The notes: generated by a model not told the origin, from the sequence alone. Shown: positions 2,748 to 53,806, counted from the first letter of the stretch. The stretch is 64,000 bases of DNA from a virus (IMGVR_UViG_3300025288_000013:46223-110222), one strand, 5' to 3'. Numbers and translations are program-made.

Positions 2748-2764
2748 TTGGCACGATTTTTGCT
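2748..2764 (+). promoter_or_regulatory. Class I sigma54-type (-24/-12) promoter
   Basis: TTGGCACGATTTTTGCT matches YTGGCACG-N4-TTGCW; about 50 bp upstream of the sigma-like gene. Confidence 0.8.
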
Positions 2765-2783
2765 GTGTTATAGTATGAATTTA

Positions 2784-2815
2784 AAACTTAACTTAAACTT
2801 AACTTAAACTTAAAC
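2784..2815 (+). repeat. AAACTTAACTT tandem repeat in the 5' leader
   Basis: About 2.5 copies immediately before ATG 2816. Confidence 0.6.
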
Positions 2816-3898
2816 ATGGAACAAGAAAAAATTTATGTGAACAATTTCACAAAACTATCACAAAATTATTTTGAATCAAGATCACAAAAAGATTTTGCCA
2901 AAATTTATGCAGAAATAAGAATAATAGCCATGTCTGCAGCTAAAGGGCTAACAGTAGATTCACATGATTACGAAAGTATAGTTGACGATATTTCTATGAA
3001 GCTTTATTTGAACTTTGATAAATATTATCAAGAAAATAAAAGTCTTTTATCTTTTGTCTTTGTTTCATGTAAACGAAAGTATTATACACTCAAGAAGACA
3101 TACAACAAAAGTATTTGTGAATCAGACATGATAATAATAAATGACAAAGACGGTGGAGAAACATCAAAATTTAATCAGGCTTTGACAAATTATTATGGCG
3201 ATTTTGTTGACCAAGAAAATGTGGAGGTTGATGCAGCCGATAACATGTTGCATTTATCGACAGATAGACAGATAGACAGAGTTAAAGAAATTGTTAAAGA
3301 AATGTGCTATAACGATAAAGGTGAGTTTAATGAAGACGAACATACCAAAATGATAGATATTCTTACACTAAGAAACGGCGAGTTTTCTCTTGGTGAAAAT
3401 TTGGAAGAGTTAATACCATATATAAAAAATGAAGAAGTTGGAAGCGTGTCAGACTTTATTAGTCCAACCATAATTTCTAATAAATATGGTATAAAGAACA
3501 GAGCAACTGTGTCGGCAAAAAGAACAAGAGCCATAGAAAAAATAAGAAACATAATTTTGTCTGATATATCAAATTCAGAGATTTTTGACAAAGTAAATTA
3601 TACAGGGACAAAAATTGTTAAAAAAGACATAAATGGCAAAATATACACACACACATATGAACTCATAGATGGTGTTGCAAATGGGGAATACAAAAAAGAA
3701 ATTTTGATTAATTCAAAGAAAACAACTCTAACAATAGGAAAATTTGAAAATGGTAAAAAAATAGGCATATGGCATCATTTTTTTGTTGAAAACGGATCTT
3801 ATATGGGATATGTAGATTATAATAGTGGTAAAAGTTTTGAATATACTGATATGGACGAAACAAGTATGGAAACACGTATAATGAAATTGTCTGTGTAA
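2816..3898 (+). CDS. Sigma70/ECF-like sigma factor with C-terminal MORN-like extension
   Basis: Region 2-like (DYESIVDDISMKLYLNFDKY..SLLSFVF), region 4 HTH-like (IISNKYGIKNRATVSAKRTRAIEKIR); C-terminal GKFENGKKIGIW-type repeats. Confidence 0.7.
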   Translation: MEQEKIYVNNFTKLSQNYFESRSQKDFAKIYAEIRIIAMSAAKGLTVDSHDYESIVDDISMKLYLNFDKYYQENKSLLSFVFVSCKRKYYTLKKTYNKSICESDMIIINDKDGGETSKFNQALTNYYGDFVDQENVEVDAADNMLHLSTDRQIDRVKEIVKEMCYNDKGEFNEDEHTKMIDILTLRNGEFSLGENLEELIPYIKNEEVGSVSDFISPTIISNKYGIKNRATVSAKRTRAIEKIRNIILSDISNSEIFDKVNYTGTKIVKKDINGKIYTHTYELIDGVANGEYKKEILINSKKTTLTIGKFENGKKIGIWHHFFVENGSYMGYVDYNSGKSFEYTDMDETSMETRIMKLSV

Positions 3899-3899
3899 T

Positions 3900-4547
3900 A
3901 TGAAGTATAACGAATTTTATGACGCTATTTTTTCTGTTGGTGAGAATCTTATTGTTAAGGCAGATTGCTCAAACAGTTGTTTTAAGCAATCTTCTGACTA
4001 TGTTACCATAATAGATATTTTTATAGATAATGGTATCATATGTTTCCATGTTGAATGTGAGGGAGAAGTGTTGCAAGATACTGATATGTGTCTGGAAACA
4101 AATGGCGTGTTTGATATAACAGCTGATGACATATTGAGTGTAGAAACCAACCAATATACAACAAAATACCTTAGCGATCTTGTTGATAGCAACAATGTTA
4201 TAAACATTGATTTGGTTGATATATCTGATATTACATTGACATCAATTATAGATATAAAAATGGATGTGGATATTGAGATAAAGAACTTGTCTGAATTAAT
4301 AAATAAAACCATAAACAACATAACATATTTGTCAAATAATTTGTTGTTTAATTTTACTGAAAAACAAATTATGATTTTGAACAAAAATGGAACCAATTAT
4401 TATGGTTATGATGAATTGGTTGGCGTGCCAGAATCATGTGAACCATGTGACCACATGGTTTTATATAATAAACTTAAACAACAAAAATCTTATTTAAGAT
4501 CATTAAAAACAATAAAAACAATAATTAAAAACAACAAAAATGGATAA
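3900..4547 (+). CDS. Hypothetical protein
   Basis: 215-aa ORF in operon. Confidence 0.7.
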   Translation: MKYNEFYDAIFSVGENLIVKADCSNSCFKQSSDYVTIIDIFIDNGIICFHVECEGEVLQDTDMCLETNGVFDITADDILSVETNQYTTKYLSDLVDSNNVINIDLVDISDITLTSIIDIKMDVDIEIKNLSELINKTINNITYLSNNLLFNFTEKQIMILNKNGTNYYGYDELVGVPESCEPCDHMVLYNKLKQQKSYLRSLKTIKTIIKNNKNG

Positions 4548-5031
4548 AGTTAAAAAAAGAGATTTAAGCAACATTAAACAAAAATTAAACAAGGCAAACT
4601 CAATAGAGTGCACGAAATTAGCATTAGCTTTGATGGAAAACCACAAAATAATTGATAAAGAACTCAATAAGTTATCACATCAAGTAACTTCTAATAGTTT
4701 GACTGAAAAAACAGAAGGATATGAACAAATTGTTGAATTTGAAGAACAAATGAGAGGATCATATCCAACATTTTGCAAAGAGGTTCCAGGTGGTGGATTG
4801 CAACTTGTTGATAAAGATGGCTGGACAAAAAAACTTGAAGAGTTAAAAGAAAAATACCCTTTGGGTAGAAAATTTTTTGATGAGAATGAAATCAGAATAA
4901 ATGGTATACTTGAAGAAGAAGTTGAACTTAATTTTAAAAAATTAAACATAAATTCTATACCAGATTTGAGTTTGGACATGATTAATACAATAAGTTTCAT
5001 GTTTAGTGTAAACCTTGTTAAATTAAGTTAA
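4540..5031 (+). CDS. Hypothetical phage protein
   Basis: 163-aa helical ORF overlapping upstream stop. Confidence 0.7.
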   Translation: MDKVKKRDLSNIKQKLNKANSIECTKLALALMENHKIIDKELNKLSHQVTSNSLTEKTEGYEQIVEFEEQMRGSYPTFCKEVPGGGLQLVDKDGWTKKLEELKEKYPLGRKFFDENEIRINGILEEEVELNFKKLNINSIPDLSLDMINTISFMFSVNLVKLS

Positions 5032-5063
5032 TCGTATCATCATAAAGGACATATAATAAAAAT

Positions 5064-8013: not shown

Positions 8014-11000
8014 TTAATTTATATTTATATTTTTATTTAGTACTAAGCTTAATTTTGTCAATATGTTAACTGTGTCCCACGTTTTGTCTTCTTCGTCCCA
8101 CGTTTTATAATGAGTATACCAGTTATCATATACTGTGTCACCATTTATTAACGATAAGTTTTTGTTTGATATTATGTATCCATCATTATATTTATTATTC
8201 GAACTTGGTTTTATGAACTTTATTTTTCCTATTTCAGAAGTATAATTAACATTTTCATCTGATATTATGTCTTTTATGTTAGAAAACGACAATATTGATT
8301 TCATTGATTCATAACATCTTGTAACATCAGATACCTGATACCAATCAAATTTTCTAAGGTCAATGAATCCTTTAACATAACTGAATAGCATAACAGAATT
8401 TATAAGACTACCATTTAGTGCCAAAACAAAAATTTTATCATCAACAAATCTAATTGTGTTATTTGTTACATTAAATGGTAATGGGTTTGACGGATTCCAT
8501 AATCCCAATCCATCAGCGTTAACGAATGTTGTTATTACTGATAAATCTTTATTATTTATACCAACCAAAGACCCAAATTCACCATTTGATTGTTTTATCC
8601 AATTTGATACTTTCATTATATTACCATCGAATTCAATAGAATCTGGCGGTGTTGGCGAAACCGATAATTTGTTTTGCAATTTAATACCTCTAAATTTGTC
8701 TGTTGGATTACTTAATGAATCTTGATAAACTAAATTTGGTATTGGTGGATATTCAAATTCGTCACCAAATAGAAAAGTTCCATTTGTGTATTTCTTTATG
8801 CCAAGCATAACATGTAAATATAAATAATCAAGTATTATCTCACCAGAATCAGTTATGGATTTCCAATCAGATATGCCTATTTCTATAACAAGCACTATGG
8901 CTTTGTGATTATCGTTTTTTATGGTTTTTATTTCAAATGGTTTATTGCTGCCTTGATAGATTTCATGTATATCCCTTGTATTTAACACAACAGAAAATCT
9001 GTAACCATCCAATGACATATCAAAAGACAATTTAACGCCTCTGAATATTGTTTCGGATATATCAAAATCATTATTCAATACTATGTTTGAATAATTTTTA
9101 TCAAAATACTCCCTAAAATAGTCATATTTGGCACTTTTAAATAAACTTTCATCAAATATTCCCCCCATTAGATTTGATATGTGATACCAACTGTGTGTGT
9201 ATAGTGATGTGTCTGATTCTTTTGTATCAAAATCTGGAGTTGTTATGCCATCCATATACATATTACCACCGTTTATGCTTATTGCGTTTCTTATGCACCA
9301 ATTATATTCATTGTTAACTTGTTTGCCAAAATTTAACAAGGGTTTCACATTATCAACAAAAAATTGTACCTCATTATCATCATTATAACTTTTTATCATA
9401 ACTTTTGGGTTACCAGATATGATGGTAAAATTTTCATCTGTTGCCGCAAACGTATCAACCAACGTCACATTGTTTGATACACCATATTGAACGCCATCTG
9501 ATTCAACAATAAATTCTGAAGAATCTCCTATTACTACATATGTTTCGCCAATTGTTAGTTTTGTCTGCTCTATATAATTACTTAGATAATCTACAACATT
9601 TGATCTGTTTATTAGTATTTCTGATTCGATTTCTGATTCAGGATAAACAGATAACACACCATATTCAATTTTTTCTCTTTGGAATACTCTAATATCGTCC
9701 ACAAAACCATTATAGTCACTTTCTGCACATGATATTATTTTGTTATTCATGTCAACTAATTCATCTAAGCCATTTGTGTTTTGGATATCAACGAATGTCA
9801 AGAATTTTGTTATTTTATGATATCCTATTTTACTTTTCATATAACCGCCCAAAACTTTATTTTTATTATCTATATCAATGATAGATGTTATATAATTGTT
9901 GGTGAAACTTATGTCTGTATTATTAACAATTGTCAAGTCAACATTTGTTGATATGTTTTTTATGTCAAATGATAGGAATTCGTTTGTTGATGATACTATT
10001 ATTTTATTATCAATTGCTTTGGCTAATAAATTGTTGCTGTAGCCTACTTCGTTATTAAATGCTTTTGATATTGATATACATTGTTCTGGTAACGTACCAC
10101 TTGGATTAAACACAAATCTTTCTGCATCTGTTTTACCAAAATTTGGATTATTAAATAATTCATCAGCCAATAATATGATGGACGTATTTTCAAAATCAAA
10201 ACGTATAGTATCGCTTTGTGACGTTGATGAATTCAATTCTAGAACTATTAACCTGGTGTAATTTTCAAGTATTTCAAAATCAATTGGTTCTTTTTCTTTG
10301 AATTTTGATAGCAATTGATCTGTTATGGTTATTTCGTTTTCTATTATTTTTGATGATGATGATATCTTGTTATCGCATTTACAATAATTATATGGAACAT
10401 CACTAAGTTCGTTTATTACTATACCATCAAAATCTTCTATTTCTATGTTCCCACTTACCAATGCATCATATATGGTTGGAACAAAATCCTTATTGTGTGT
10501 TTTTTTATAGAATTCACCAAGTTTTATATCATCCACAAATAACCAATAATCATCTTCTTCTAAATCATCTATGTAGAATGCAAATTGGAAAATTGAATTC
10601 GGTATGATTTTGTTTTCCAAAAAAGTGTTGGTTATCGTATCATTTGTTATTAAATCAAACCCAGAAACTTTTGATACAATAGATCCATTCAACAAATCAA
10701 CTCCGTTAACAGTTATGGATTTGTTATCAAAATCTATGTTTATGGGATCATATTTTATATTAAGTTCTGATAGGTGATTTGTTATATACTTACCTATTTT
10801 AGAGTTTATGGATAAGTCATATGTCTTTTTTATCGTATGATCATTTTTATTATCACTACCATTTTTTGACATAACAACAAATCTACTTGGTAAAGATTCA
10901 TTTACAACAAGAGTAACTATTATTCTGTTCTCAATAGTTTCAAAATCATCGCCAGAAAACAAAATTTTGTTCTCCACTTCACCAAATATCCTATGTAAAT

Positions 11001-13281: not shown

Positions 13282-13289
13282 TATAAATA
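13282..13289 (+). promoter_or_regulatory. Possible T4-type late promoter TATAAATA
   Basis: Exact octamer 15 bp upstream of the tail tube gene; weak given AT content. Confidence 0.4.
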
Positions 13290-15083: not shown

Positions 15084-15112
15084 ATAAACTTTTAAATTTG
15101 GTTTTTGTTACA
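15084..15112 (-). promoter_or_regulatory. Class II promoter TGTAAC-N17-GTTTAT
   Basis: Intergenic, 18 bp upstream of ATG 15066. Confidence 0.75.
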
Positions 15113-22066: not shown

Positions 22067-23488
22067 TTAAAGTTCCTTAACAATTACATTAAGGTCAACA
22101 GTCGCATTTGTTGCATCTGTTGCGTTTCTTATATGTATTTCTATAAAATCATCCAGTGTGTGATCTATCACCCCCATTATTGATATTGGGGTTGCCTTAC
22201 CTACACCATCAGTAGTAACCTTTAATTTTGATGACGGAATAATGCCACTTATTTTGCTATCATATATACCAAATTCAAGGGTTTTATTGTTTCCAGCTGT
22301 AAAACTAATCGTACAATAAACCGCCAATTTTCGTTTTATGGCTGTTTTACACATTAAGTTATTTGATGAATGTGCGTATTTAAACAAAAAACTACCGGCA
22401 ATTGTAGCACCGGCAATTTTTACAAATGATATTGTATCTGGTATAACTGTGGCAACAACGTTGCCAACCATATACATTGTGCCTATCACACTTGTATTGT
22501 CTATTGGACGACAATTGACAAATAATGATTTATCTGATGTGTGATCTATGCCTTGCAGATAAATTCCATTACCGCTAAAATGAATATCATTTAGTATATA
22601 ACTTTCAGAACCAATAACAGTATCAACATTGAAATCTATGCCAATTGCTGTTTCTGTTGGTGCAAATGCTGAATCTGTTACTCTAAATCTTCTATTGATT
22701 GTGGTTGTGGCAAGTGTTTTTAAAATTGTTGTGTTTGATGAAAGGAATAATGCTGTAAAAAATGATATTGTGTTACAAAACCCATCAAAAATTAACCCAC
22801 CACTGTTTATAAATGTTCCATTGCTGAAGATAAAATCAGAAAAATTTTTTATGACACCAATATTGGGACAATTAACAAAACTTACGCCTCTCCATATCAT
22901 GATGGCATTACTTCCGCCAGCACCATCTACACAATTTATGTCAAAAACTTTTGTGATATCTTTTATGGTTATATCTTGTATTGTCAGATCTTTTGTTGAT
23001 GTTATTATGGCGAAATCAGCACCTAAACCAGTTGATGTTATAGAATTACTACCGCCAGCTGTTCCATGAATGACATTGTTTATTCCACAAACTATTCTAT
23101 CACCACCCAAATCTACTGCTTTTGTTACAAAATATGTGATATTGTCAACAAGTGTTATAACACCACCAACCGCTTCTGGGAAATCAAAATTATTATTTAT
23201 CCACACTATGTTTTCTGGAGCATTTCCTGTATTTTGTAATGTTATTGTATTAATACCGTCTGTGTATTTATAAACGTGTTGCGTTGTGTTATACCACAAC
23301 GCACCATCAACCAATACTTCTGGGTCTGTTGCGTATTTCGGTATAACTGACCCTGTTGCTGTTTCTATATCAGAATCAACTTGTGATTTTGTAGTTGGCT
23401 GGCTATTTGTTGTAGCATTTGGTACATTTTCTATTGATTTATTATTTACATCTAATCCGAATATACTTAATTTTCCTCTAATTTTCAT
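22067..23488 (-). CDS. Tail fibre/spike protein (beta-helix-like)
   Basis: Stalk motif I.NV.N......TK.QVD; DFP.AVGGVITL; T/N/I-rich. Confidence 0.65.
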   Translation of the reverse strand: MKIRGKLSIFGLDVNNKSIENVPNATTNSQPTTKSQVDSDIETATGSVIPKYATDPEVLVDGALWYNTTQHVYKYTDGINTITLQNTGNAPENIVWINNNFDFPEAVGGVITLVDNITYFVTKAVDLGGDRIVCGINNVIHGTAGGSNSITSTGLGADFAIITSTKDLTIQDITIKDITKVFDINCVDGAGGSNAIMIWRGVSFVNCPNIGVIKNFSDFIFSNGTFINSGGLIFDGFCNTISFFTALFLSSNTTILKTLATTTINRRFRVTDSAFAPTETAIGIDFNVDTVIGSESYILNDIHFSGNGIYLQGIDHTSDKSLFVNCRPIDNTSVIGTMYMVGNVVATVIPDTISFVKIAGATIAGSFLFKYAHSSNNLMCKTAIKRKLAVYCTISFTAGNNKTLEFGIYDSKISGIIPSSKLKVTTDGVGKATPISIMGVIDHTLDDFIEIHIRNATDATNATVDLNVIVKEL

Positions 23489-26417: not shown

Positions 26418-27139
26418 GCTATTCCGTAAAGTGCTTTAAGCGTGTTTGAATTATTCGTTAATTTCGTTGAGTTGTAGCTACCAAATGAAGCATATCCCTC
26501 ATCGGTTAGAAATGAAAGTAAAGTATTAGAACTTGTCGCTATCCTGCCTATTAAAGATAAATTAGTTGTTGCTGTTGGTATTAATAATGGATTTGATGCT
26601 GGTGCATTAACTCTTAAAATTCCATTTGTGTATATTTGAATATTTGTCCCTGTGTATGCAAATATGATTAATATTTTGCCGCTACCAATTGCTGAGCCAA
26701 ATGAGATTGGAAATGAACTTGTTCCAGCAGAGTTAAATGTCTGCATTATAATTCCACCCGTTGTTACAATAAATTCAAAACCTTCATTATTTGGATTGGC
26801 GGTATTAAAGCAAGTTAACATTCTGTAAACAGATGAAGCATTGTAATTTATAACAAAGTTAGCCATCCAGCCGCTATAACTCCTTCCGAAATTAGTAATA
26901 TTTTTTGTTATAATATCGTCAATCGCATCTCCTTTATAACTCTTCAAACCATTTATAGTAGTTGCTGTTGGCTTATTCGCTAAAGCAGGATTTTGTAAAT
27001 TCAATCCTCCAACACTTCCACTATCGGGAATGGTTATAATATTCCCATCGGCATTTTGAACATTAGGCATAAACCATTCATTCTCAATGTCTAATATTTG
27101 AGTTAAACTTACGTATCTATATGGATTAATTATGTTCAT
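26414..27139 (-). CDS. LamG/ConA-like tail-associated protein
   Basis: Start MNIINPYRY coupled to upstream stop; Y.G..I.IY.NG motif. Confidence 0.6.
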   Translation of the reverse strand: MNIINPYRYVSLTQILDIENEWFMPNVQNADGNIITIPDSGSVGGLNLQNPALANKPTATTINGLKSYKGDAIDDIITKNITNFGRSYSGWMANFVINYNASSVYRMLTCFNTANPNNEGFEFIVTTGGIIMQTFNSAGTSSFPISFGSAIGSGKILIIFAYTGTNIQIYTNGILRVNAPASNPLLIPTATTNLSLIGRIATSSNTLLSFLTDEGYASFGSYNSTKLTNNSNTLKALYGIA

Positions 27140-29876: not shown

Positions 29877-31520
29877 ATGGCATTTATACCAGGCAATACA
29901 ACCATAGAATCAGAACAATCAAATGAATTTGACGATCAAGATATAAATGCTATAAATGAATCGAACATATCAAACGACGGCGAATCATCACAACAACCAG
30001 AAAGTGAAATTGTTGAAAACAACGATGGAGTATTGTATAGGGAAGCCACACTAAAAAACAATGTGTTTGGTTATGAAAGATCGGTTAGAACATCACAACT
30101 TGAAGACGTTTATGGATCGCCGTCAATATTCAACAAAGGGACTTTGTTTGTTTATCCATCAAGTAGCAGCAGAAACGGTATAAGAAGATTCCATGATATA
30201 GATGGTGAAACAAACATGTTTCCAAACATGAATCCAACCTATTCACAAATAATAGAATTATCAAAAATAAAATTTGGTGGGAATCATACAAACACAGAAC
30301 TGAAATGGGCAGACTTTGTTTATTGTAAACACTTTGAAAAAATACCAACAAATAGATTGCTGATTTTGAGGCGGTATCCTTTTCCAACCTATAATAACTT
30401 ACAATTTCCATTGGATGAAGAGGTTAGACCACTTTCAACAGGTATAACTTATTTTGGTGGTGAAACTGGCAATACATTATCAGAATTTTTTAAACTTAGT
30501 GGTTATAAAAATTACAAAGATCTTACTGCATCATTGGAAGTTATAAGTGGTCAAGGACAAAACAAATCGATGGGTGACACACCTTTGATTGGTGCAGCTG
30601 GTAGTACCGTTAACAAAGGTTTAAAAGTTGTTAGTGCAGCAAGTGGTCGTGGTGACATAAGTGGTCGTGAAAGAGTGAAAAATGAAGCATTGGCTGGGAA
30701 GAATTGGGAAAATGAAAGAAAGGGCGAGGAAAATGTAATACACAAAACTGTAATAGCTGATGTGGGTGTTGGGGTAGAATTAGCATTTGATATCATTTTT
30801 GAATATAAATTAAGAAGTTACAATGGTATAAATCCAAGAATAGCTATGCTTGATTTAATAACCAATTTGATGACATTAACCCACACAAATGCTTCTTTTT
30901 GGGGTGGCACAAACATAGTGTTACCAAACAGTCCAAAATTCCCATTTATTGGCGATCAAGATTCTTATTATCGTGGTGACTATTCATCTTATTTGGGAAG
31001 TGTGATGGATTCGTTTTCTGGCGTTGGCGAGGGGTTATCCAATCTACTAGATGGAATATTGTCTGGGGATTTAAGTTCAATCGGTGCTGCTCTTGGTAGT
31101 GCGGGTAGCAAGGTTTTAGATTTACAATCAAGTAAGTCCAGATCATCTGTAATTGGATTGAAAGCGTTGCTTGATGCCTCACCTGTTGGTAATTATCATC
31201 TTACCATTGGTAACCCTTTAGAACCAATAGGAAAAATAGGCAATTTAATTTGCCCAAAATTTGAACTTAGCTTTGGCGATGAAATTGGCTACAACGGATT
31301 TCCAACCACCGTTAAACTAAATGTTTCACTTAAACTTGCCACCCCACTTGATTCTACTGGGGTTCAATCAATTTTTGCCAATGGTATTAGTTCAAACAGA
31401 ATGTATATGAAACCAGAAACTTTTATCAGTGAAGACGGCAAAAATAATGAAGATGCAACATTCAATGGAACAAAATATAGGAAAGATGATATTGATAGGA
31501 TGGATGGTGTTATATTCTAG
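29877..31520 (+). CDS. Putative baseplate/tail hub protein
   Basis: 547 aa; IP.NRL..LRR.P.P, HLTIGNP..PI..IGNLIC. Confidence 0.55.
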   Translation: MAFIPGNTTIESEQSNEFDDQDINAINESNISNDGESSQQPESEIVENNDGVLYREATLKNNVFGYERSVRTSQLEDVYGSPSIFNKGTLFVYPSSSSRNGIRRFHDIDGETNMFPNMNPTYSQIIELSKIKFGGNHTNTELKWADFVYCKHFEKIPTNRLLILRRYPFPTYNNLQFPLDEEVRPLSTGITYFGGETGNTLSEFFKLSGYKNYKDLTASLEVISGQGQNKSMGDTPLIGAAGSTVNKGLKVVSAASGRGDISGRERVKNEALAGKNWENERKGEENVIHKTVIADVGVGVELAFDIIFEYKLRSYNGINPRIAMLDLITNLMTLTHTNASFWGGTNIVLPNSPKFPFIGDQDSYYRGDYSSYLGSVMDSFSGVGEGLSNLLDGILSGDLSSIGAALGSAGSKVLDLQSSKSRSSVIGLKALLDASPVGNYHLTIGNPLEPIGKIGNLICPKFELSFGDEIGYNGFPTTVKLNVSLKLATPLDSTGVQSIFANGISSNRMYMKPETFISEDGKNNEDATFNGTKYRKDDIDRMDGVIF

Positions 31521-33939: not shown

Positions 33940-36789
33940 GTCATTAACAATTTCCACAAATAGAACTCCCTCGTTTTTATCAGTTTTATCAGTGAATCTC
34001 TTATCATCTGTTTCAACCATATCACGTTTTAATCTTGCTTTAGAATTTTCATTGTCATAATTGGTAAACAGAACACCATCAATCAATCTTTTCTCTCTGT
34101 CTTGGTTACCAAATAATTTTTTATAAATAGCTTCGACAAATTTTGATTTACTTAAACCCTTTGCAAAACAATTAGCCTTATAATATTTATACACTCTTTC
34201 AACTTGATCCCATGACCTAGCCTCAACTTGTACTATCAGTGTTTTTCCTGCACTGTTATTACTAACATCAAGTTTCTTAAGCTTAAATCGTTTCTTAAGA
34301 ATTCTCATTGTTTGGAGTTCTACACTGTTGATATTTTTATTGATAGTTGGATCAAATGGTCGTTTTATAACAACATTTAATGTATTTTTCCAATAATCTA
34401 TGGCTTCTTTTATAGCAATTTCACAATCTTTTTCACCAATACCTGTCTTTTTCATTATTGTGAATTTGTAATTTTCTATAAAATGTTTCTCAACTTTTAT
34501 CTCTTCAATAAGTGCATCCCTTAAACCAATCAATATAGGCAACATGTTTAGATAATGTTTTCTGTGTAACCTTGAAGTTATATAATAATCAATTTCTTCA
34601 AGAACCAATGCATCATAATTTATGACAAAATTATCATCATTAAAAATCTTGAACCTTGTCCATGTGTCACCATTATAGTCTTTCTTGATTCCCAACTCTT
34701 CTGCATAATATCTATATTTGTCTTTACCTTTTCTTGTTTCTCCACTAGATTCATTGAAACTTATTGACATTTCGGTATAACTTTCTTCATAAGACCACAT
34801 ACCATTTTTATCAGAATAATTTATTTTTGTTAACAACTTGCCATCAACTTCTTTGGTTTTATCCATCAATCTTATACCATCCATATTACCTTTTAACAAC
34901 TTGTATTTTTCCTCTTCTGTTACCCATTTTACATATTCAACACGTCTTGTTTTTTTAATTGGTTTTACAAAATAAACGCTTGAATAAGGCATTCTTGGTG
35001 CAGACCATTTATTTGACCAATATTTTGTAAACCTATCAGAATTGTCTTCAGCACTACCATCCATGTTTTCAGAAGAATAGTAAATTCTACTTCCAACTTT
35101 TATATCTTTGTTAATACATTTTAACCATTCTTTAAATGTTGGTTTACCATCAGACAAAACATTCTCTTCATCATAAATCATTTGTACAACTCCTTTATGT
35201 TGTTCAACATTCATTATATTAAACTCTGAACTAACATTAAAGATATTGGTTCTTGATATTATACCATGAAGAAGTAAGAAGTTTTTCTTGTATGAAAATA
35301 ATTTTCCGTCTGAATTCTCAAGTTCTTGTAGTGCCGTTTTTGAATTATAATCATCACCTGTTATTTTTTGTTGTGAACTTGATATGTTTTCAAACAATTG
35401 TTGGAGTTCTTCTTTCTTTGGGAACAATCTATTAGAACCAATGTGATCAGTGAAAATTCTATAAACATTTCCACCATTTCTTATCATTATGTATGTCTTA
35501 TCATCCATATCAGCCAACATTGCTCGTTCAAATGCGTTTTCTATATGTTCACGTTTCTTACTATTTCGTCTTAATCCCATTATCACAACACATTTTTCGT
35601 CTGGAACAAGCTTGGTATAATTTTCTGATTTACCTGCCCACAAATCAAATTCTGGCAAATCTTTTAACTCCAATCCCTCGTTTTCATAAATTGCTATTTC
35701 TTCGTCCATAAACAATTTCATTTGTCTTAAACAAATTTCTTGTGTATCTGGTGCATCTTGTCCAACAGCTATTTGGACTATATCTTCATTTATTCCAGCA
35801 AAGATTTCAATGGTTTGTATGAGTTTATTAATTTTGTTGATTTTTGTTGATAATTCTGCAACAGAAACAGCAAGTAAATTTTTGATACCGTCAAATTTAG
35901 CCATTTCTTCTGAAATCTTCTTCTGCATTTCATTGGTCTTTAACATTATGCTTCTTCTTGTTGACCTTGAATAAAGTGTTGCGTTATCTTTTGATATAGC
36001 CATTTTATCCCTCATTAATTCATAATGTTTTGTTGAACCCATGTGAACAAGTCCATTATCAACATCAACAGATTTATCGTCTGATCCAATAAGTATAACA
36101 TCTTCTGATAAACTTGATATGTCACCAGATTCAATAAACATCTTTATCTTGCTCTCATATCCACCAAGTGATGATTCGTTTAATTTAATAAGATTTAGTT
36201 CGTCAAATTCTTTTTTTGTTATCAACTCTTCTTTATCAAATTCTTCTGGATAAAACGAATCCTTTTCATATTTGATTTTTATAACAGGTTCATCCATGTT
36301 GATATTGATTCTGTGTGGATTAAAAATTGTATCATATGACAAATCCCCATTAATTGTCTTTCTTGTGGTTATATCACAAACATTATAATATCTACCACTT
36401 TCATGTAAATAAAACGCACCTATTGTGACACCACCATTTATCCAATCTCTTCTTATTTCAGTTAACTCCTCATTGGAAATAATTTTGCCTTTTTTAAGAT
36501 AATCATCACTAATCGCTTCAAATTTTATGTTGTATTTTTGACCCTTATTATCAATTTTTATGAATGATACCAATTTCCATGCTTTTTTTGGATAGAGTTG
36601 TTCTGATTTATTTGATGGTTTATAATGAAAAATTTGATTATCTTTTATGGAAACACCATGACTCAATTCTATGTTTTCATCGATAAGTGTGTGACCATTT
36701 GTTTCAGCATCAACCAAAAGATTTTTTATCCTTTCTATATATATGACATTATCTCTGTCGTAGGATGATATTTTTATGTTAAATCCCAT
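33928..36789 (-). CDS. Large hypothetical protein
   Basis: 953 aa; central coiled coil; Q..LFMDEE and NG.N.YRI blocks. Confidence 0.85.
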   Translation of the reverse strand: MGFNIKISSYDRDNVIYIERIKNLLVDAETNGHTLIDENIELSHGVSIKDNQIFHYKPSNKSEQLYPKKAWKLVSFIKIDNKGQKYNIKFEAISDDYLKKGKIISNEELTEIRRDWINGGVTIGAFYLHESGRYYNVCDITTRKTINGDLSYDTIFNPHRININMDEPVIKIKYEKDSFYPEEFDKEELITKKEFDELNLIKLNESSLGGYESKIKMFIESGDISSLSEDVILIGSDDKSVDVDNGLVHMGSTKHYELMRDKMAISKDNATLYSRSTRRSIMLKTNEMQKKISEEMAKFDGIKNLLAVSVAELSTKINKINKLIQTIEIFAGINEDIVQIAVGQDAPDTQEICLRQMKLFMDEEIAIYENEGLELKDLPEFDLWAGKSENYTKLVPDEKCVVIMGLRRNSKKREHIENAFERAMLADMDDKTYIMIRNGGNVYRIFTDHIGSNRLFPKKEELQQLFENISSSQQKITGDDYNSKTALQELENSDGKLFSYKKNFLLLHGIISRTNIFNVSSEFNIMNVEQHKGVVQMIYDEENVLSDGKPTFKEWLKCINKDIKVGSRIYYSSENMDGSAEDNSDRFTKYWSNKWSAPRMPYSSVYFVKPIKKTRRVEYVKWVTEEEKYKLLKGNMDGIRLMDKTKEVDGKLLTKINYSDKNGMWSYEESYTEMSISFNESSGETRKGKDKYRYYAEELGIKKDYNGDTWTRFKIFNDDNFVINYDALVLEEIDYYITSRLHRKHYLNMLPILIGLRDALIEEIKVEKHFIENYKFTIMKKTGIGEKDCEIAIKEAIDYWKNTLNVVIKRPFDPTINKNINSVELQTMRILKKRFKLKKLDVSNNSAGKTLIVQVEARSWDQVERVYKYYKANCFAKGLSKSKFVEAIYKKLFGNQDREKRLIDGVLFTNYDNENSKARLKRDMVETDDKRFTDKTDKNEGVLFVEIVNDCNK

Positions 36790-36794
36790 GATTG

Positions 36795-37166
36795 TTAGTT
36801 TATCAATTTTAGTGCCTCTTGTAGTCCATCTTCTAATGCCTCTTCGTAAGTTTTATATTCTTTGGCATCAATTGGCGAACTAAATGCGATATTTCGTACA
36901 ACTCTAAAAACATGTTTATTATACTCAAAGGAATTAAGTAGATGAATTTCGTATACTTCTCTTAACCATTTTTGTAGCAAGGATTGAGTTGGTGCTGATA
37001 ATAAAGTAATATTCCACAAACTTTGTTCTTCGTCACTATTATGATTATATAAACTACCATCAATTATCGTGTCTTTGTCCCCTTGATATCTATGTTGTGT
37101 TTTACAATCAAAACCTTTTTCTTTGGCTAATTTGGCTGTTTCAAAACTTATTAGTTGATCTTTCAT
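36795..37166 (-). CDS. Hypothetical protein (paralog family B)
   Basis: SFETAKLAKEKGFD..APTQSLLQKWLR..TYEEALE. Confidence 0.75.
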   Translation of the reverse strand: MKDQLISFETAKLAKEKGFDCKTQHRYQGDKDTIIDGSLYNHNSDEEQSLWNITLLSAPTQSLLQKWLREVYEIHLLNSFEYNKHVFRVVRNIAFSSPIDAKEYKTYEEALEDGLQEALKLIN

Positions 37167-37177: not shown

Positions 37178-37522
37178 TTAGTATAATTGTTCGTTAATTC
37201 TTTTTCTACATTCTTTGCATCTGTATCTTAAATCAATTACAGATTTGACAATATCAACTTTTGCGTTCGCATTTTCTCCAAGATAACTAACATCAGGTTG
37301 TACAAATGGTGATTTATGATTCATACCACGTTCTATAATTTCTTCAACAAGATAATCATGTCTGATTTGCATTGACATTGGTTCGATTTGTATAATTGGT
37401 GCTAATCTACCATCCATTTTGTGCTTCTTCTCAAAATTGTGCTTGTGCTTATGGATCTCACCGTGTTCACCAAGTAAATGTTTATCACACATCAACTTTG
37501 GGTTTATCATCCACATTTTCAT
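37178..37522 (-). CDS. denV: Pyrimidine-dimer DNA glycosylase (endonuclease V-like)
   Basis: M.MW...P..MCD.HLLGEH.E.H; RH..LV.E...RG.NH.SP. Confidence 0.7.
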   Translation of the reverse strand: MKMWMINPKLMCDKHLLGEHGEIHKHKHNFEKKHKMDGRLAPIIQIEPMSMQIRHDYLVEEIIERGMNHKSPFVQPDVSYLGENANAKVDIVKSVIDLRYRCKECRKRINEQLY

Positions 37523-37653
37523 ATTTCAAACTGTTTGTTGAATATTTTTGTTGCACCAGTTCCAACAACGAAACCAATTATTGTGTTTTCATCAAGTTCA
37601 GAACAATTTCTCAACACAAACTCATTTCCTTGTAAATCTCTAAATTTTCTCAT
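37519..37653 (-). CDS. 44-aa protein
   Basis: Follows class I promoter and leader; ATGA overlap downstream. Confidence 0.6.
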   Translation of the reverse strand: MRKFRDLQGNEFVLRNCSELDENTIIGFVVGTGATKIFNKQFEI

Positions 37654-37687
37654 TTTATATAATTTAATTGGTTTATGTTATATACAT

Positions 37688-37704
37688 TGCAAAAATCGTG
37701 CCAA
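37688..37704 (-). promoter_or_regulatory. Class I sigma54-type promoter
   Basis: TTGGCACGATTTTTGCA. Confidence 0.8.
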
Positions 37705-37707
37705 GCT

Positions 37708-37863
37708 TTATTTTGAATTTAAATCTGATAATTCAGACCAAAATAGATACAATATGATACCTAAAGCAATTGTTCGTTGGATACTTTCAATAATAAAATT
37801 TGATAATCCAATAAAAACACCTATTCTAAAAATATATACCAATGGTTTAGTGATTTTATTCAT
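37708..37863 (-). CDS. Small hydrophobic protein
   Basis: 51 aa from MNKITKPL. Confidence 0.45.
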   Translation of the reverse strand: MNKITKPLVYIFRIGVFIGLSNFIIESIQRTIALGIILYLFWSELSDLNSK

Positions 37864-38004: not shown

Positions 38005-38283
38005 TTAACGAATTTCTTCGATTCTTTTCAAAAGATTCTCTTTGGTGTTCTTGTTACTTTTGTAAGCAATTTGAATCTTTTTGTCATCTTTGGCGATTCT
38101 TATGAAGTTTTGACCAAAAGTCACATCATATTTTTTACGCCCCATGAATAAGTCAACTTTGTTTTCTTCTTCATTTTTGATTCTTATGTTAATCCCAAAA
38201 CCCTCTAAAACTGTTGTTAAGCTTTCAGTGGTTTTATCAAAATTAACTGTTTCTTTTACTGTTACTGTTTCTGTTTTTGTCAT
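38005..38283 (-). CDS. Hypothetical protein (paralog family C)
   Basis: FG..F......KIQI.Y.S..NT motif. Confidence 0.75.
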   Translation of the reverse strand: MTKTETVTVKETVNFDKTTESLTTVLEGFGINIRIKNEEENKVDLFMGRKKYDVTFGQNFIRIAKDDKKIQIAYKSNKNTKENLLKRIEEIR

Positions 38284-38345
38284 TGGTTTATGCTTATTTC
38301 TAAGACTTTATTGGTTTATGATTAAAATTTTTATATAATATACAT

Positions 38346-38362
38346 TGCAAAAATCGTGCCAA
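38346..38362 (-). promoter_or_regulatory. Class I sigma54-type promoter
   Basis: TTGGCACGATTTTTGCA. Confidence 0.8.
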
Positions 38363-38365: not shown

Positions 38366-38557
38366 TTATATAAGACGAATATCTTCTATTAGTACGTATT
38401 GGTGGTGTGTTTCGTACTCATATCTTACTCTAACTGTGTCATTTATTTTAGACCCATAATCGATGTGAGCAATAGTGTGACCGTTTATGTGGACAATTTC
38501 ACCACCATTTGATACATGTGATTTGATATCTTTTAGTGTTCTTACTGACTGTGCCAT
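38366..38557 (-). CDS. Hypothetical protein
   Basis: 63 aa between two class I promoters. Confidence 0.7.
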   Translation of the reverse strand: MAQSVRTLKDIKSHVSNGGEIVHINGHTIAHIDYGSKINDTVRVRYEYETHHQYVLIEDIRLI

Positions 38558-38590: not shown

Positions 38591-38607
38591 TGCAAAAATC
38601 GTGCCAA
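38591..38607 (-). promoter_or_regulatory. Class I sigma54-type promoter
   Basis: TTGGCACGATTTTTGCA. Confidence 0.8.
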
Positions 38608-40139: not shown

Positions 40140-40493
40140 TCATATTAATTCTTTTAAAATATAATCAAATGCTACTGAATAAGCTTCTTGTGGAGTTTTA
40201 TTACCATTAAATGATTGTTTCTTATTATTTGTTTGAATAAATGAAGAAAATAATTTACCATCCATATTATGATATAATTCTACTCCTATCCAAATACCAT
40301 AATTAATTCGTAGCCATTCAATTACTTGCCATTGTTCTGGTGCTGAACATATTATATCTACACTATTAAAATTTGTTTCTATTTCTGTTATAAACCTATA
40401 ACTATTACTTGAATAATATAATTTACATTTTACATCAAATCCTTTACCTTTAAGGAGTTTAGCTTGTTCAAATGTTACAAAAATTCTTTCCAT
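40140..40493 (-). CDS. Hypothetical protein (paralog family B)
   Basis: TFEQAKLLK.KGFD..APEQ.QV.EWLR. Confidence 0.75.
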   Translation of the reverse strand: MERIFVTFEQAKLLKGKGFDVKCKLYYSSNSYRFITEIETNFNSVDIICSAPEQWQVIEWLRINYGIWIGVELYHNMDGKLFSSFIQTNNKKQSFNGNKTPQEAYSVAFDYILKELI

Positions 40494-40528: not shown

Positions 40529-40545
40529 TGCAAAAATCGTGCCAA
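40529..40545 (-). promoter_or_regulatory. Class I sigma54-type promoter
   Basis: TTGGCACGATTTTTGCA. Confidence 0.8.
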
Positions 40546-46016: not shown

Positions 46017-46628
46017 ATGATGTTGAGTGATCATATAATCAGCGATTTTATAATTCGTTTCTCGGACGATTTCTTTTATGATGATGTTAAGAAAAAATTT
46101 CAAGATTACTTTGATGAAAATAATGGGATCTTTCGTTCTATCACAGATTCGTTTAACGCAACCATCATTGGTACAAATATTCTTGGGTATGATTCACAGT
46201 CAACAAGTCCGCAAGGACACCACAAAGGACAAGTAAGAACATTCCAAAATTCGTTAACCAATATACAAAAACATAAAAAAACACTTGATGTCAGTTTTGC
46301 CCTCAAGTATGGTTTGTTTAATTATTACATGTTATTTGAAAACATCATTCAGTTTAATGAAAATAACATAAATGATGGTATGGATATATTCTTACCACCG
46401 ATAATAATGGATATAATTGATTCTAATGGTAACATTATTTATACATACATTTACAAAGAAATACAAGTGGAAAGTTTGTCTACATTAAGTCTTAAAAAAA
46501 CTGACAATGGTATAGGATCAAAAGAATTTACATGTTCATTTCGATATAACATACTTGACATAAAAACTTATTTAAACAAAGACAAATCAAAAAGTTTAAA
46601 CGATTCATTCAAACACAAATTTAAATGA
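46017..46628 (+). CDS. Tail tube-like/baseplate protein
   Basis: Tube-like C terminus (D.NG....Y.Y......L..L......F.C.F.YN). Confidence 0.5.
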   Translation: MMLSDHIISDFIIRFSDDFFYDDVKKKFQDYFDENNGIFRSITDSFNATIIGTNILGYDSQSTSPQGHHKGQVRTFQNSLTNIQKHKKTLDVSFALKYGLFNYYMLFENIIQFNENNINDGMDIFLPPIIMDIIDSNGNIIYTYIYKEIQVESLSTLSLKKTDNGIGSKEFTCSFRYNILDIKTYLNKDKSKSLNDSFKHKFK

Positions 46629-48741: not shown

Positions 48742-49089
48742 CTATTTATTATTTTGGTGAAACTTTGATATAACCGATATATTATCTTTTCCATAAAGTT
48801 CTTCCATAAAACATTTAACATTATCATTTTTACACTGATCAGCAACATATTCAACAAACAATCTGAAATCGTTCTTTGCTAATGCCAATCCAGCTGATAG
48901 ACCGACTATATCTATGTGTTTTGAAATGGATGTTATGGCTTCAATAACCTTTATGTTTTTAACAACCTCATCAATTTGTGATATAGTCATTAATTGTCTT
49001 TGTGAATTTGGAAATTCTCTAAGCGATTTGTCATATAATTTCATTTTTTCTAACTCCAATTCTTCAAGATTTTTTGATATGTGTGCCAT
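48742..49089 (-). CDS. Hypothetical protein
   Basis: 115 aa after class I promoter. Confidence 0.7.
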   Translation of the reverse strand: MAHISKNLEELELEKMKLYDKSLREFPNSQRQLMTISQIDEVVKNIKVIEAITSISKHIDIVGLSAGLALAKNDFRLFVEYVADQCKNDNVKCFMEELYGKDNISVISKFHQNNK

Positions 49090-49115
49090 TTTTATTAAGT
49101 TTATATAAATACACT

Positions 49116-49132
49116 TGCAAAAATCGTGCCAA
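49116..49132 (-). promoter_or_regulatory. Class I sigma54-type promoter
   Basis: TTGGCACGATTTTTGCA. Confidence 0.8.
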
Positions 49133-49135
49133 GTT

Positions 49136-49834
49136 TTATTTTACCAAATGTCTTACACCATTAATTGTTCTTACCAATCTGAACCCCACTTTTGCACACA
49201 TTTGTTTGAGATATGTTTTTGTTTCCAAATCATTGACATTTATAATCCACAAACCCTTATCGTCTTTCTTAAACTCACAATCTTCTGATATCAGTGTTAT
49301 TAATTTATCTCTTTTGATTCGTTGAGATTTTGTCAAACCCTTAGAATTCGATCTATAATGATTAACAACTTCACTGATATTTGATTGTTTTGATATTGGA
49401 CAGACAAAAATTTGCTTAACGGCATCAAATACACAGCCAAGACTTATGAGTTCTTTTGTGAACCCCCAATTGTAATCATCAAGATTTTCGACAACAAATT
49501 GGTCTTTTGATACAACAATTTTCTTTGGTTCAGAAGTTGGTTTATTTTCATTCATAATAATTGGTTGATTAACTTGGTCCTGTACACAAAACAATTTGTT
49601 GAATTTTTGTTGTAAAATTTCATCAGTGTTTTTCTTACTTTTATAACTGATTTGTATCTTGCAATCACCAACAAATACACCAATGAAAGTTGCTCCAAAG
49701 TTTGTTGTACATGTTTTACCATTCATTAGAAATTCGTGCTTACCATCTGATGCCTCTGATATGTAAAACAAAGATTTCACGAATGGTTTAACCTTATTCG
49801 TGAAATCTGATGGTTTTTTTGTAAATTGTAACAT
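49136..49834 (-). CDS. Hypothetical protein (paralog family C domain)
   Basis: FG..F..KIQISYKSKKNT. Confidence 0.75.
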   Translation of the reverse strand: MLQFTKKPSDFTNKVKPFVKSLFYISEASDGKHEFLMNGKTCTTNFGATFIGVFVGDCKIQISYKSKKNTDEILQQKFNKLFCVQDQVNQPIIMNENKPTSEPKKIVVSKDQFVVENLDDYNWGFTKELISLGCVFDAVKQIFVCPISKQSNISEVVNHYRSNSKGLTKSQRIKRDKLITLISEDCEFKKDDKGLWIINVNDLETKTYLKQMCAKVGFRLVRTINGVRHLVK

Positions 49835-49869
49835 TTTATATAAATTTAATTGGTTTATATAATATACAT

Positions 49870-49886
49870 TGCAAAAATCGTGCCAA
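49870..49886 (-). promoter_or_regulatory. Class I sigma54-type promoter
   Basis: TTGGCACGATTTTTGCA. Confidence 0.8.
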
Positions 49887-49910
49887 GCTTTATGAAAACA
49901 ACTATATTGG

Positions 49911-50246
49911 TTAGAACCATTTATCAGACCATTCTATTCTACTTGAAGATGGTATGTGTGTGTGCAACAGATCTTTTATTTTCTTACAATCAGTAAACCA
50001 AAATCTACCATAAGCATACTTTGATCCAAAATTAATTTTCCTAAGAACAACGCCTTTTATTCTAAAGTGTGAACAATATTGTTTATGGGTAGTTTTTTGT
50101 CCTATCCAATTTCTTGTTGTTTCTATGATAAATATTTGTCTATCAAATTTTTTTACCTCATATATCATAGGAAAGAACAAACTTTTTAATGATGAAATTC
50201 TGCTTGATTTAATCGATAATAATGTGATTTCTTCTTTGTTGTCCAT
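49911..50246 (-). CDS. Hypothetical protein
   Basis: 111 aa. Confidence 0.65.
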   Translation of the reverse strand: MDNKEEITLLSIKSSRISSLKSLFFPMIYEVKKFDRQIFIIETTRNWIGQKTTHKQYCSHFRIKGVVLRKINFGSKYAYGRFWFTDCKKIKDLLHTHIPSSSRIEWSDKWF

Positions 50247-50302
50247 TTTATTATGCTTATTTCTAAGACTTTATTGGTTTATATAGTGTTTTTATGTTTA
50301 CT

Positions 50303-50319
50303 TACAAAAATCATGCCAA
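50303..50319 (-). promoter_or_regulatory. Class I promoter variant TTGGCATGATTTTTGTA
   Basis: Two mismatches; same position just after a stop codon. Confidence 0.65.
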
Positions 50320-50322
50320 AAT

Positions 50323-50631: not shown

Positions 50632-50635
50632 AATT

Positions 50636-51040: not shown

Positions 51041-51124
51041 TTTAATTAAATTTAGACACAATAATGATAGACATCTGAAATATTGCTTGTTTTTGTTATA
51101 TGTGGATTACACACTGTTTCAATT

Positions 51125-51657: not shown

Positions 51658-51659
51658 AA

Positions 51660-51896
51660 CTATTCAGGTTTTGTATAATTATGTTGTCCATACGTAAGAA
51701 TACTACTTGGTTTTATTAATGAATGTGACATAACTGTTAAACCTTTATATGATGGATTTCTACCTTTATATCTACTGTGTCTTTCTACCTTGTGTATTCT
51801 TATTTCATTGGATTTCCATATACAACAAGTACTCACATTTATTTGTCGTTTAAGTTCTTTCTTAATTTTGCGTGGTATTCGTTTTATCTTTTCCAT
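51660..51896 (-). CDS. Basic hypothetical protein
   Basis: RIPRK.KK motif. Confidence 0.6.
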   Translation of the reverse strand: MEKIKRIPRKIKKELKRQINVSTCCIWKSNEIRIHKVERHSRYKGRNPSYKGLTVMSHSLIKPSSILTYGQHNYTKPE

Positions 51897-51898
51897 AA

Positions 51899-53755
51899 TT
51901 AAAATAATGAATCGTTTTTAACTTCTTTCTTTATAAACTCGTTTTCTAATTCTACCAATGTTATTATTGGTAACCCATTAGCCTTTGCCTTTCTTGTTTT
52001 ACCACTAACAATGTTTTCATTCAATCTCACTACATGTGTCACAGAGTTGTTCCAATTGTCTTGTATTTTGTGACCAGCATTTTCAATAGCTTCAGCTAAT
52101 TTTCCATGAAATCTGCAATTAGTCGGACAATACACATGACCAATAAAATCTTTATCACTTATCGGTTTCTTTATAATGTACCCAAGACTTTCAACTTGTT
52201 TTTTAAATTCCTCATATTTCAATAAACCTTTATCAATTGTACTTGTTGCAAAACTACCAAGACCCTTTGCCTCTATTCCATCAAGTAAATATAATTTTAG
52301 TTTAGTACTACCAAGATTAGGGAAAAAGCCACTTGCAGCCATAAATGTGTGTTCATCAATACCATTTATTGATTTGTTTAATTCGTTTTTAAGTGTTTCA
52401 GCGGTTTTATTACCAAATCCATCATCATTGATAAGTTTGTTAAAATCAAATAAAATCAATTTACTGATTGTATCAATACCATGACTATCAAACATATGTT
52501 CAAGTGTACTTATTCCAAATCCTTTAGCCTTTGTTTTTGTAACAAAATGTTCCATAAGTCTAATGCTTATACCTTTGTTTTGTGAATTGTCTGCAGCTTT
52601 TATGCAAACACCATCCCAAAAGTATTTAAAATCTGGTTCATTGTACTTATCTTGGAAATCTTTTGGAAAGAAATAGATATCTCTGATTTCATCTATTGTA
52701 TGGTTCTTAGAAACTTTTAATAATTCTTTTCTATTTGGTATTTCAACATCTTCAACTGAAACAAGTCTTGGAATTATACCGCCAGATTTTTTCAAACCAA
52801 TTTTAGTTCCAATACCCATTCCAAAGATTTTTACAAACAATTCATTATCAACATTTATATTGGTGATATTAGAACCATCAATGACTGTCGGTTTTATGTT
52901 TAATACAGGGTTGTATACACCATTCTTCGATATTTGTCTTGTTATTCCAATAATTTCTGATTCATAGATATCATCAAATGAAACATGTTTGTATGCCTTT
53001 GATGCTTTTGGATTAATTGTACCAGTTTCACACCCTTGATGTTTACTATTATCAATCAAATCAATAACAACACCATCACAAGGATAAAGCTTCTTCCATG
53101 AATAAAAAACATCTGAAAGAAGTTCATGTGTTAAATCTTTTGAATGAATTGTTTTGAAGATTGTTGAAGATTGTTTCCAATCATTACCGTCATTACCACA
53201 TTTATCAAATGGTACAAATTCAACAAATGACATCAGTTCTTTACTTGGACTTTTTGAATTAAACAGACCGGCAACAGCGTTTCGTGGGTGACTATACTCT
53301 AATGGTTTAAAATGTTTTTCAAAGTTTTCATTTGATATAACAGCCTCACCTCTAAAATAATCTTCTTGAGATAAATGGTGTGATGCGTTTTGGATCAACA
53401 TGAATTGATTGGTAACGATTGTACCTGTTATACCATTTTCGTTTTTTGACATAGCATGACAATTTCCCACTTCTATACTTATACCATCAAGCTTCGGACT
53501 TAATGTCACCATGTCATCATACCCATTTAACCATTTTTTTGTTTCTTCTATTGTTTTTAATTTCTTTAACGAACCCATTTGATGTGGAAGTTTTATAACA
53601 CTTCCATAAGCATAACTTGCCTCAATATCTGGTTTACTACCAAATTCTATGATATACATTTCAACCAATCTGTCGAATTCATAATCAGAAATTTTTGGGA
53701 TTCCTAAACGATAAAGAGTATTATGAGTTATTATTTGTTCTAACAAATTTTCCAT
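51899..53755 (-). CDS. ligA: NAD-dependent DNA ligase
   Basis: Y..G.P.ISD.EFD, MGSL.K, KLDG, RGE, PRN.VAG, DGVVI, OB/HhH, BRCT-like C terminus; start after class I promoter. Confidence 0.93.
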   Translation of the reverse strand: MENLLEQIITHNTLYRLGIPKISDYEFDRLVEMYIIEFGSKPDIEASYAYGSVIKLPHQMGSLKKLKTIEETKKWLNGYDDMVTLSPKLDGISIEVGNCHAMSKNENGITGTIVTNQFMLIQNASHHLSQEDYFRGEAVISNENFEKHFKPLEYSHPRNAVAGLFNSKSPSKELMSFVEFVPFDKCGNDGNDWKQSSTIFKTIHSKDLTHELLSDVFYSWKKLYPCDGVVIDLIDNSKHQGCETGTINPKASKAYKHVSFDDIYESEIIGITRQISKNGVYNPVLNIKPTVIDGSNITNINVDNELFVKIFGMGIGTKIGLKKSGGIIPRLVSVEDVEIPNRKELLKVSKNHTIDEIRDIYFFPKDFQDKYNEPDFKYFWDGVCIKAADNSQNKGISIRLMEHFVTKTKAKGFGISTLEHMFDSHGIDTISKLILFDFNKLINDDGFGNKTAETLKNELNKSINGIDEHTFMAASGFFPNLGSTKLKLYLLDGIEAKGLGSFATSTIDKGLLKYEEFKKQVESLGYIIKKPISDKDFIGHVYCPTNCRFHGKLAEAIENAGHKIQDNWNNSVTHVVRLNENIVSGKTRKAKANGLPIITLVELENEFIKKEVKNDSLF

Positions 53756-53789
53756 TTTATATAATTTAATTGGTTTATATAATATACAT

Positions 53790-53806
53790 TGCAAAAATCG
53801 TGCCAA
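53790..53806 (-). promoter_or_regulatory. Class I sigma54-type promoter
   Basis: TTGGCACGATTTTTGCA. Confidence 0.8.

Follow-up and report, generated by a model that had tools for sequence, protein, structure and literature searches.

Sigma-54-type sites in the window and the genes behind them

The window analysed here, a stretch of 64,000 nucleotides, spans bases 46223-110222 of a 110,222-bp IMG/VR virus record (IMGVR_UViG_3300025288_000013, hereafter G000), which is estimated to be 64% complete. It carries a set of near-identical 17-mers of the sigma-54 (RpoN) -24/-12 promoter type, one of them in front of a predicted sigma-factor gene. A pattern search allowing up to two mismatches found TTGGCACGATTTTTGCW eight times exactly and once as a two-mismatch variant, at exactly the coordinates and on the strands given for nine sites in the initial annotation; the mean over 100 dinucleotide-preserving shuffles was 0.02 matches, and no shuffle had as many as nine. 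With the looser consensus TGGCAC-N5-TTGCW the same eight exact window sites were recovered and no further exact one. The genome-wide motif scan that the initial annotation had proposed was carried out on the 110-kb record and yielded a tenth copy, TTGGCACGATTTTTGCG, at G000:C1:22043 (+), beyond the window. Each of the ten lies between genes and points in the direction of the following open reading frame (ORF), and the measured distance from motif end to ATG is 26-62 nt, in agreement with the 25-65 bp first estimated. Every specified position of TGGCACG-N4-TTGCW is matched with the GG-N10-GC spacing exact, the variant having TTGT at -12. With about 11 fixed bases, a coincidental match by an unrelated motif would have a probability of about 1e-7.

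The only plus-strand site of the window, TTGGCACGATTTTTGCT at 2748-2764, lies 51 nt 5' of the sigma-factor gene described below; all others are on the minus strand. The site at 37688-37704 heads a 44-aa ORF (37519-37653), a gene for a DenV-like glycosylase (37178-37522) and one for a phrog_12005 protein (36795-37166), and the site at 40529-40545 precedes a 117-aa ORF (40140-40493) that also belongs to phrog_12005. Small ORFs likewise follow at 38346-38362 (92 aa, 38005-38283, behind a long leader with a module common to site 50303), at 38591-38607 (63 aa, 38366-38557), at 49116-49132 (115 aa, 48742-49089, with a homologous site in viral contig L015) and at 49870-49886 (232 aa, 49136-49834). 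The variant, TTGGCATGATTTTTGTA at 50303-50319, is placed before a 111-aa ORF (49911-50246), and a like variant, TGGTACGATTTTTGTA, occurs in a related phage, G001. Finally, the site at 53790-53806 precedes the gene of an NAD-dependent DNA ligase (51899-53755). The initial description of these targets as accessory and regulatory genes missed the main one, a gene for a sigma factor of the extracytoplasmic function (ECF) type.

The likeness among the copies exceeds the 17-mer and includes ATAAAGC upstream and AATGTATATTATATAAAC downstream. Three copies are alike through the whole leader to the ATG and form promoter-leader cassettes of about 70 nt, 79-93% identical (53745-53814, with near-identical copies at 37643-37712 and 49825-49894, all on the minus strand). 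The leaders are unstructured, and no Rfam family was matched in the window. In DNA contigs aligned to the phage there is no variant inside the promoter cores, and contigs break at the repeated cassettes. Short promoter cassettes repeated between small early-type genes are known from T4-type phages as PeSL (promoter-early stem-loop) elements. The cassettes described here share that arrangement and could mediate shuffling, but they have no stem-loop and the promoter is of the sigma-54 type.

Two further observations concern the cassettes and leaders. A second, longer leader module, AAACCAATAAAGTCTTAGAAATAAGCATAA, is found in two of the genes behind sigma-54-type sites (38257-38319 and 50220-50282, minus strand); it contains a weak CTTA-GAAA-TAAG hairpin whose fold is not significant. 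Besides, paralogous HNH endonuclease genes (phrog_374) at 53820-54518 (-) and G000:C1:23123-24019 (-) each adjoin a sigma-54 cassette; the cassettes may be junctions for mobile-gene insertion, or the adjacency may be due to chance.

Kinship, probable host and conservation of the core

The large terminase is T4-like, with Flavobacterium phage MaF61 (167.8 kb) as its best cultured match at 39% identity; the MaF61 annotation is too sparse for a transfer of functions. PHROG scans recognised a replication and repair set (family-B DNA polymerase, gp32-like single-stranded DNA-binding protein (SSB), clamp loader, primase, SbcCD, NAD-dependent ligase) and a virion set (portal, baseplate wedge, head closure protein, DNA end protector), while no homologue of gp55, MotA or AsiA was recognised among the approximately 70 proteins scanned. 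A megablast comparison of 5.6 kb with a phage collection returned no match, and DNA of the phage is present in groundwater and aquifer metagenomes. The G+C content is about 30%, a Shine-Dalgarno-like motif precedes only 2-3 of 111 genes, and the 25 nt 5' of start codons are A-rich and G-poor. Because Shine-Dalgarno motifs are near absent and the pre-start DNA is A-rich and G-poor, the translation signature is of the Bacteroidota type, and the host is probably a member of the Bacteroidota.

A separate observation concerns the DNA itself. A PurZ-type adenylosuccinate synthetase (phrog_1211, E 1e-32) is encoded at G000:C1:44636-45919, just 5' of the window, and such a synthetase is also found in G001 and MaF61. 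An HD-type hydrolase with a weak dATPase match and a MazG-like pyrophosphatase are encoded at G000:C1:5350-5955 and 34348-34800. Taken together, the three enzymes point to a genome that may contain 2-aminoadenine (Z), a base that, if present, would make melting of the A/T-rich promoters more difficult.

The relative G001 (126.6 kb) displays 25-47% amino-acid identity to G000 over 22 shared proteins and contains seven sites of this kind, which all share one strand and mostly end 26-55 nt before an ORF. The 17 sites of the two phages all read TGG.A.G.TTTTTG, with C positions that hardly vary, whereas the flanks are not alike in the two phages. Since the core is kept while the flanks have diverged, selection appears to act on the sigma-54 core. 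Upstream of the G001 sites, at about -30 to -60, stand TGTCAT/ATGACA palindromes (C1 about 26970-27010, 29890-29920 and 46310-46330), a possible regulator or enhancer site with none comparable in G000.

This pattern of conservation bears on whether the sites could be ordinary primary-sigma promoters, with TTGGCA as the -35, a 16-nt spacer and TATTAT as the -10. Four sites do score 10/12 with a consensus scanner, but the matches of that scanner are no commoner in the phage than in shuffles (118 vs 128). Moreover, what would be the spacer, CGATTTTTGCA, does not vary at any of the sites, while the would-be -10 is missing or altered at 2748, 40529, 49116 and 50303 and in G001; an invariant spacer joined to a variable -10 is the reverse of how a -35/-10 promoter behaves. 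The primary sigma of Bacteroidota, in addition, reads TAnnTTTG at -7 and not TTGACA/TATAAT (PMC9723704). We therefore rejected this reading, to which we give next to no credence. The initial annotation had named another alternative, in which GATTTTTG would act as such a -7 TAnnTTTG element; it fails on spacing, the TTG lying only 4 nt upstream instead of about 19, and was rejected as well. Intergenic DNA of the 110-kb record contains no complete Bacteroidota primary-sigma pattern, TTTG-N17-21-TAnnTTTG, and only a handful of isolated TAnnTTTG boxes stand at plausible positions.

Bacteria from many phyla contain the exact 17-mer too, in most cases 10-60 nt ahead of an ORF, so that no single host is indicated by the scan; in a 101-genome sample of the class of one such bacterium (G005), that genome alone contains it. 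Within the Bacteroidota, a Chitinophagales genome has 11 TTGGCACG-N4-TTGCW sites, seven of them with the same ATTT spacer, against none for a control pattern. The rpoN gene is present in Flavobacterium psychrophilum (PMC9723704) and, from a control list, in Bacteroides thetaiotaomicron, and is absent from the phage record. For F. psychrophilum, 5'-end sequencing of transcription start sites located the sigma-54 promoters (motif SM4), and mutagenesis confirmed them (PMC9723704); rpoN is constitutively expressed, the sigma-54-driven chaperone cluster has a high basal level in growing cells, and a sigma-54 interaction domain is predicted in three proteins (PMC9723704 and its supplement). The phage sites share with these promoters the -24/-12 architecture, the occurrence of TTGT variants at -12, short leaders lacking a Shine-Dalgarno motif and, in the case of the remF promoter, TTGGCACGATTTT. 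They differ in that the Flavobacterium sites are degenerate (groES TTGGCATAATTTCTGA, clpB TTGGAATAACAATTGA) and need three host activators, while the phage sites have a perfect consensus, are nearly identical to one another and have no common upstream element.

Similar sites were also noted in other settings. In several Prevotellaceae, Tannerella and other Bacteroidales genomes the 17-mer is directly followed by long (GA)n/(CA)n runs (metagenome-assembled genomes, loci L068, L081, L101, L103, L123, L134, L146, L153, L105, L140 and L141), which could be a phase-variable design of sigma-54 promoter. In unrelated uncultured phages, sigma-54-type sites are found clustered, in tandem arrays or as inverted pairs (G108, 260-271 kb; G114, 20.9-24.3 kb; G115, 22976-23043; L011/L020; L022; L024/L052), with nine sites within 11 kb in the complete 335-kb genome G108 and the motif paired with its own reverse complement in L024.

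An ECF-type sigma factor and a probable three-step cascade

The first gene after promoter 2748, at 2816-3898 (+), encodes a 360-aa protein whose C-terminal domain consists of MORN repeats. When all six frames were searched against Pfam, a weak Sigma70_r2 match (E 0.013) fell within this ORF, and the protein searched alone stayed below threshold, with nothing in Pfam or PHROGs. Little came from small alignments: a PDB profile built from four sequences returned noise only, and an AlphaFold model based on four sequences had low confidence (pLDDT 54). However, 66 relatives were recovered when 1.8 billion representative proteins were searched with a profile. Among the 28 that were aligned, Pfam Sigma70_r2 is detected in 10 (best E 7.9e-9) and MORN_2 in 16, and their joint profile aligns region 2 and the region 4 helix-turn-helix to structures of ECF sigma factors (5uxx, E 2.6e-6; SigK, 4nqw, 6e-6; RpoE, 2q1z, 1e-4). 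Because the family profile spans sigma regions 2 and 4 of solved ECF factors, the gene is, as judged from homology, that of an ECF-type sigma factor with a MORN-repeat tail. Weaker support comes from a homologue that carries the JGI name sigma-24 family protein and from an ESM Atlas lead, which agrees with the sigma identity. Viral contigs searched with the sigma-factor alignment contained no relative.

A second promoter class has the layout expected for a factor of this type. The pattern GTAACAA-N13-15-GKTTW, which corresponds to the ECF-type arrangement AAC-N17-GTT (-35 AAC and -10 GTT/CGT, about 16-17 nt apart), has 21 matches in the record against 0.5 expected, 20 of the 21 being intergenic. 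The class precedes the genes of the DNA polymerase, SSB, primase, the clamp-loader operon, nucleotide enzymes (guanylate kinase) and the endolysin. One member, GTAACAA-N13-GGTTT at 1553-1579 (+), is followed by two ORFs and then the sigma gene, and by reading toward that gene it would allow autoregulation. The other ECF-type sites of the window start at 15085, 19844, 33912, 39070, 45958, 48083, 48346, 57098 and 58124, all on the minus strand, and at 58165 (+). The T4 late box TATAAATA defines a third class: 11 of its 34 copies are intergenic where about two are expected (6% of the record is intergenic), an enrichment of about five-fold. It stands 0-18 nt before the start codons of a baseplate gene and other genes (examples are 13282-13289 (+) and 8022-8029 (-) in the window, and G000:C1:26304 (-) and 18663 (+)); for the baseplate gene and other large genes of the structural block the distance is 9-18 nt.

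With at least one sigma factor encoded by the phage, the 17-mer might instead be the box of a phage-encoded factor, whether its own sigma or a MotA-like activator bound near -30, with TATATAA as the -10; the likeness to sigma-54 would then be coincidence. Counted from TATAAA as the -10, the 17-mer would extend from about -39 to -23, the position of MotA boxes in T4, and an A/T-rich block with TATA(T)AA is kept 3' of the core in both G000 and G001. We nonetheless consider such a box very unlikely. A chance match to about 11 fixed consensus positions with the exact spacing is hard to accept, the same 17-mer precedes genes in bacteria of many phyla, and TATATAA is displaced by 2 nt from one phage to the other and missing from sites 40529 and 50303. 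The GTAAC-N17-GTT class, moreover, suits a phage ECF sigma better.

We favour the reading in which the ten sites are genuine sigma-54 -24/-12 promoters that head gene blocks, probably at or near the top of a phage cascade, and we put its probability at roughly 0.7. The consensus, spacing, placement, orientation, the core conserved in the relative and the Bacteroidota-type signals agree with this, and the sigma-54-type promoter class first proposed from the window is thereby supported at the level of sequence. Binding by the host sigma-54, the timing and order of the classes and the pairing of the phage sigma with its promoters are what we infer, as follows. Host sigma-54 RNA polymerase would dock on TGGCACG-N4-TTGCA and, once activated, would initiate about 12 nt downstream of the C in TTGC; the resulting leaders, about 15-50 nt in length, would be unstructured and rich in A and U. 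This class would head the small-gene blocks, the DNA-repair genes (ligase, DenV) and the gene of the phage ECF-type sigma; the latter would then most likely read the GTAACAA-N13-15-GKTTW class, and the T4-type TATAAATA late promoters would serve the structural genes. The sigma-54 class would thus probably stand at or near the top of a three-step cascade, from host sigma-54 to phage ECF sigma to T4-type late transcription.

Several observations weigh against this reading. The conservation of AATGTATATTATATAAAC indicates that the core is not the sole maintained part, which could reflect another factor or a recent duplication of the cassettes. MaF61, the closest cultured relative, is without such sites, and there is no RNA run among the sequencing runs that carry DNA of the phage. 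The chaperone promoters of F. psychrophilum are far less consensus-like, so the phage does not simply copy them. The remaining points concern activation: neither a Sigma54_activat domain (PF00158) nor a sigma-54 DNA-binding domain was found in the 110-kb record, nor was any GAFTGA-like motif, and the 200 nt upstream of the ten sites have no common k-mer above background and thus no common enhancer. About 36% of the phage genome lies outside the record and could encode an activator; the sequencing runs with DNA of the phage include contigs of up to 171.7 kb.

Activation of the sigma-54-type promoters and comparison with other phages

Sigma-54 promoters are the one bacterial type unable to open without an ATP-driven activator, and they are seen as tight, host-controlled switches. 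Just two ATPases with a clear Walker A motif were recognised in the 110-kb record, the clamp loader and SbcC. The search for rpoN or Sigma54_activat that had been suggested was run on this record and found neither, and the earlier statement that no activator is visible in the window now extends to the rest of the record and to five other phage records. All five viral records have sets of sigma-54-type sites, yet neither the Sigma54_activat nor the sigma-54 DNA-binding domain is present in them above the Pfam cut-off; two, of 335 kb and 51 kb, have terminal repeats and are complete. A sub-threshold PF00158 match in G001 proved to be an ABC/SMC-type ATPase and was rejected as an activator.

Activation most likely comes from a host enhancer-binding protein that is already at work in the cell and does without an enhancer on the phage DNA. 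A different route, in which the sigma-54 promoters fire without a canonical enhancer-binding protein, seems to us unlikely. It could involve a new activator, made by the phage or delivered with the virion and hidden among the small ORFs or in the unsampled third of the genome, or an activator-independent opening helped by the A/T-rich DNA after the -12. To our knowledge, sigma-54 never initiates without an enhancer-bound AAA+ ATPase of the GAFTGA type, a rule that would be broken if firing without a canonical enhancer-binding protein were true. Perfect sites with neither enhancer nor activator recur in unrelated phage records, two of them complete, and such a mechanism could therefore be widespread.

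A closed sigma-54 complex that lacks an activator is stable and silent, and the sites might accordingly dock the sigma-54 enzyme without firing. They would then be a sink for the host sigma-54 polymerase, drawing it from the host regulon (in Flavobacterium, chaperones and gliding) as copies of the phage DNA accumulate, or roadblocks or insulators between gene cassettes. The lack of an activator, a GAFTGA motif and a common enhancer is consistent with docking alone, and the same lack is seen in two complete phage genomes with such sites; a near-perfect consensus maximises binding and not regulated firing, and the tandem or inverted copies of other phage contigs are unlike simple promoters. We regard docking alone as distinctly unlikely, though, since a decoy needs neither the co-orientation of 10 of 10 sites at 26-62 nt before a start codon nor a leader kept to the ATG, and several of the downstream blocks have no other recognisable promoter. 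Moreover, with ten sites per genome a sink would be effective only late in infection.

Use of sigma-54 by a phage has a precedent. According to PMC5053324 and PMC10914365, development of Pseudomonas phage YuA depends on host sigma-54 (Ceyssens et al. 2008), one sigma-54-like promoter, P015, was identified by promoter trap and ONT-cappable-seq, and phage use of sigma-54 is treated as rare but not unprecedented. The initial remark that such promoters are unusual for a lytic phage therefore holds, with YuA as an earlier case. Both are virulent phages using host sigma-54, here by prediction, for part of their programme. However, YuA is a 58.7-kb siphovirus of a proteobacterium (Pseudomonas aeruginosa) with one named sigma-54-like promoter, whereas the phage described here, known from sequence, is T4-like, has a probable Bacteroidota host and carries ten near-identical copies as a class, one of them before a phage sigma. 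The literature that we searched contains no description of a sigma-54 promoter class in a T4-like or a Bacteroidota phage.

Phage-encoded sigma factors drive the cascades of phiEco32 (gp36) and SPO1 (gp28), and T4 has an early-middle-late cascade. The proposed scheme shares with these systems the successive promoter classes, a phage sigma from an earlier class and TATAAATA-type late promoters before structural genes. It differs in that the first tier would be the enhancer-dependent sigma-54 instead of the primary sigma and, compared with T4, in that the parts scanned contain no recognised homologue of MotA, AsiA or gp55.

A T4-like phage that stakes a gene class and its own sigma on sigma-54 promoters must obtain activation somewhere, either from an always-on activator of growing hosts, as in the Flavobacterium chaperone regulon, or from something new brought by the phage. 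Either answer would be a new entry route among the known ways in which phages take over transcription, and would also turn host rpoN and its activators into candidate determinants of phage susceptibility in Bacteroidota. Altogether, ten near-identical promoters, a phage ECF sigma and about 20 target promoters would make up a compact regulatory kit, testable in a tractable Flavobacterium.

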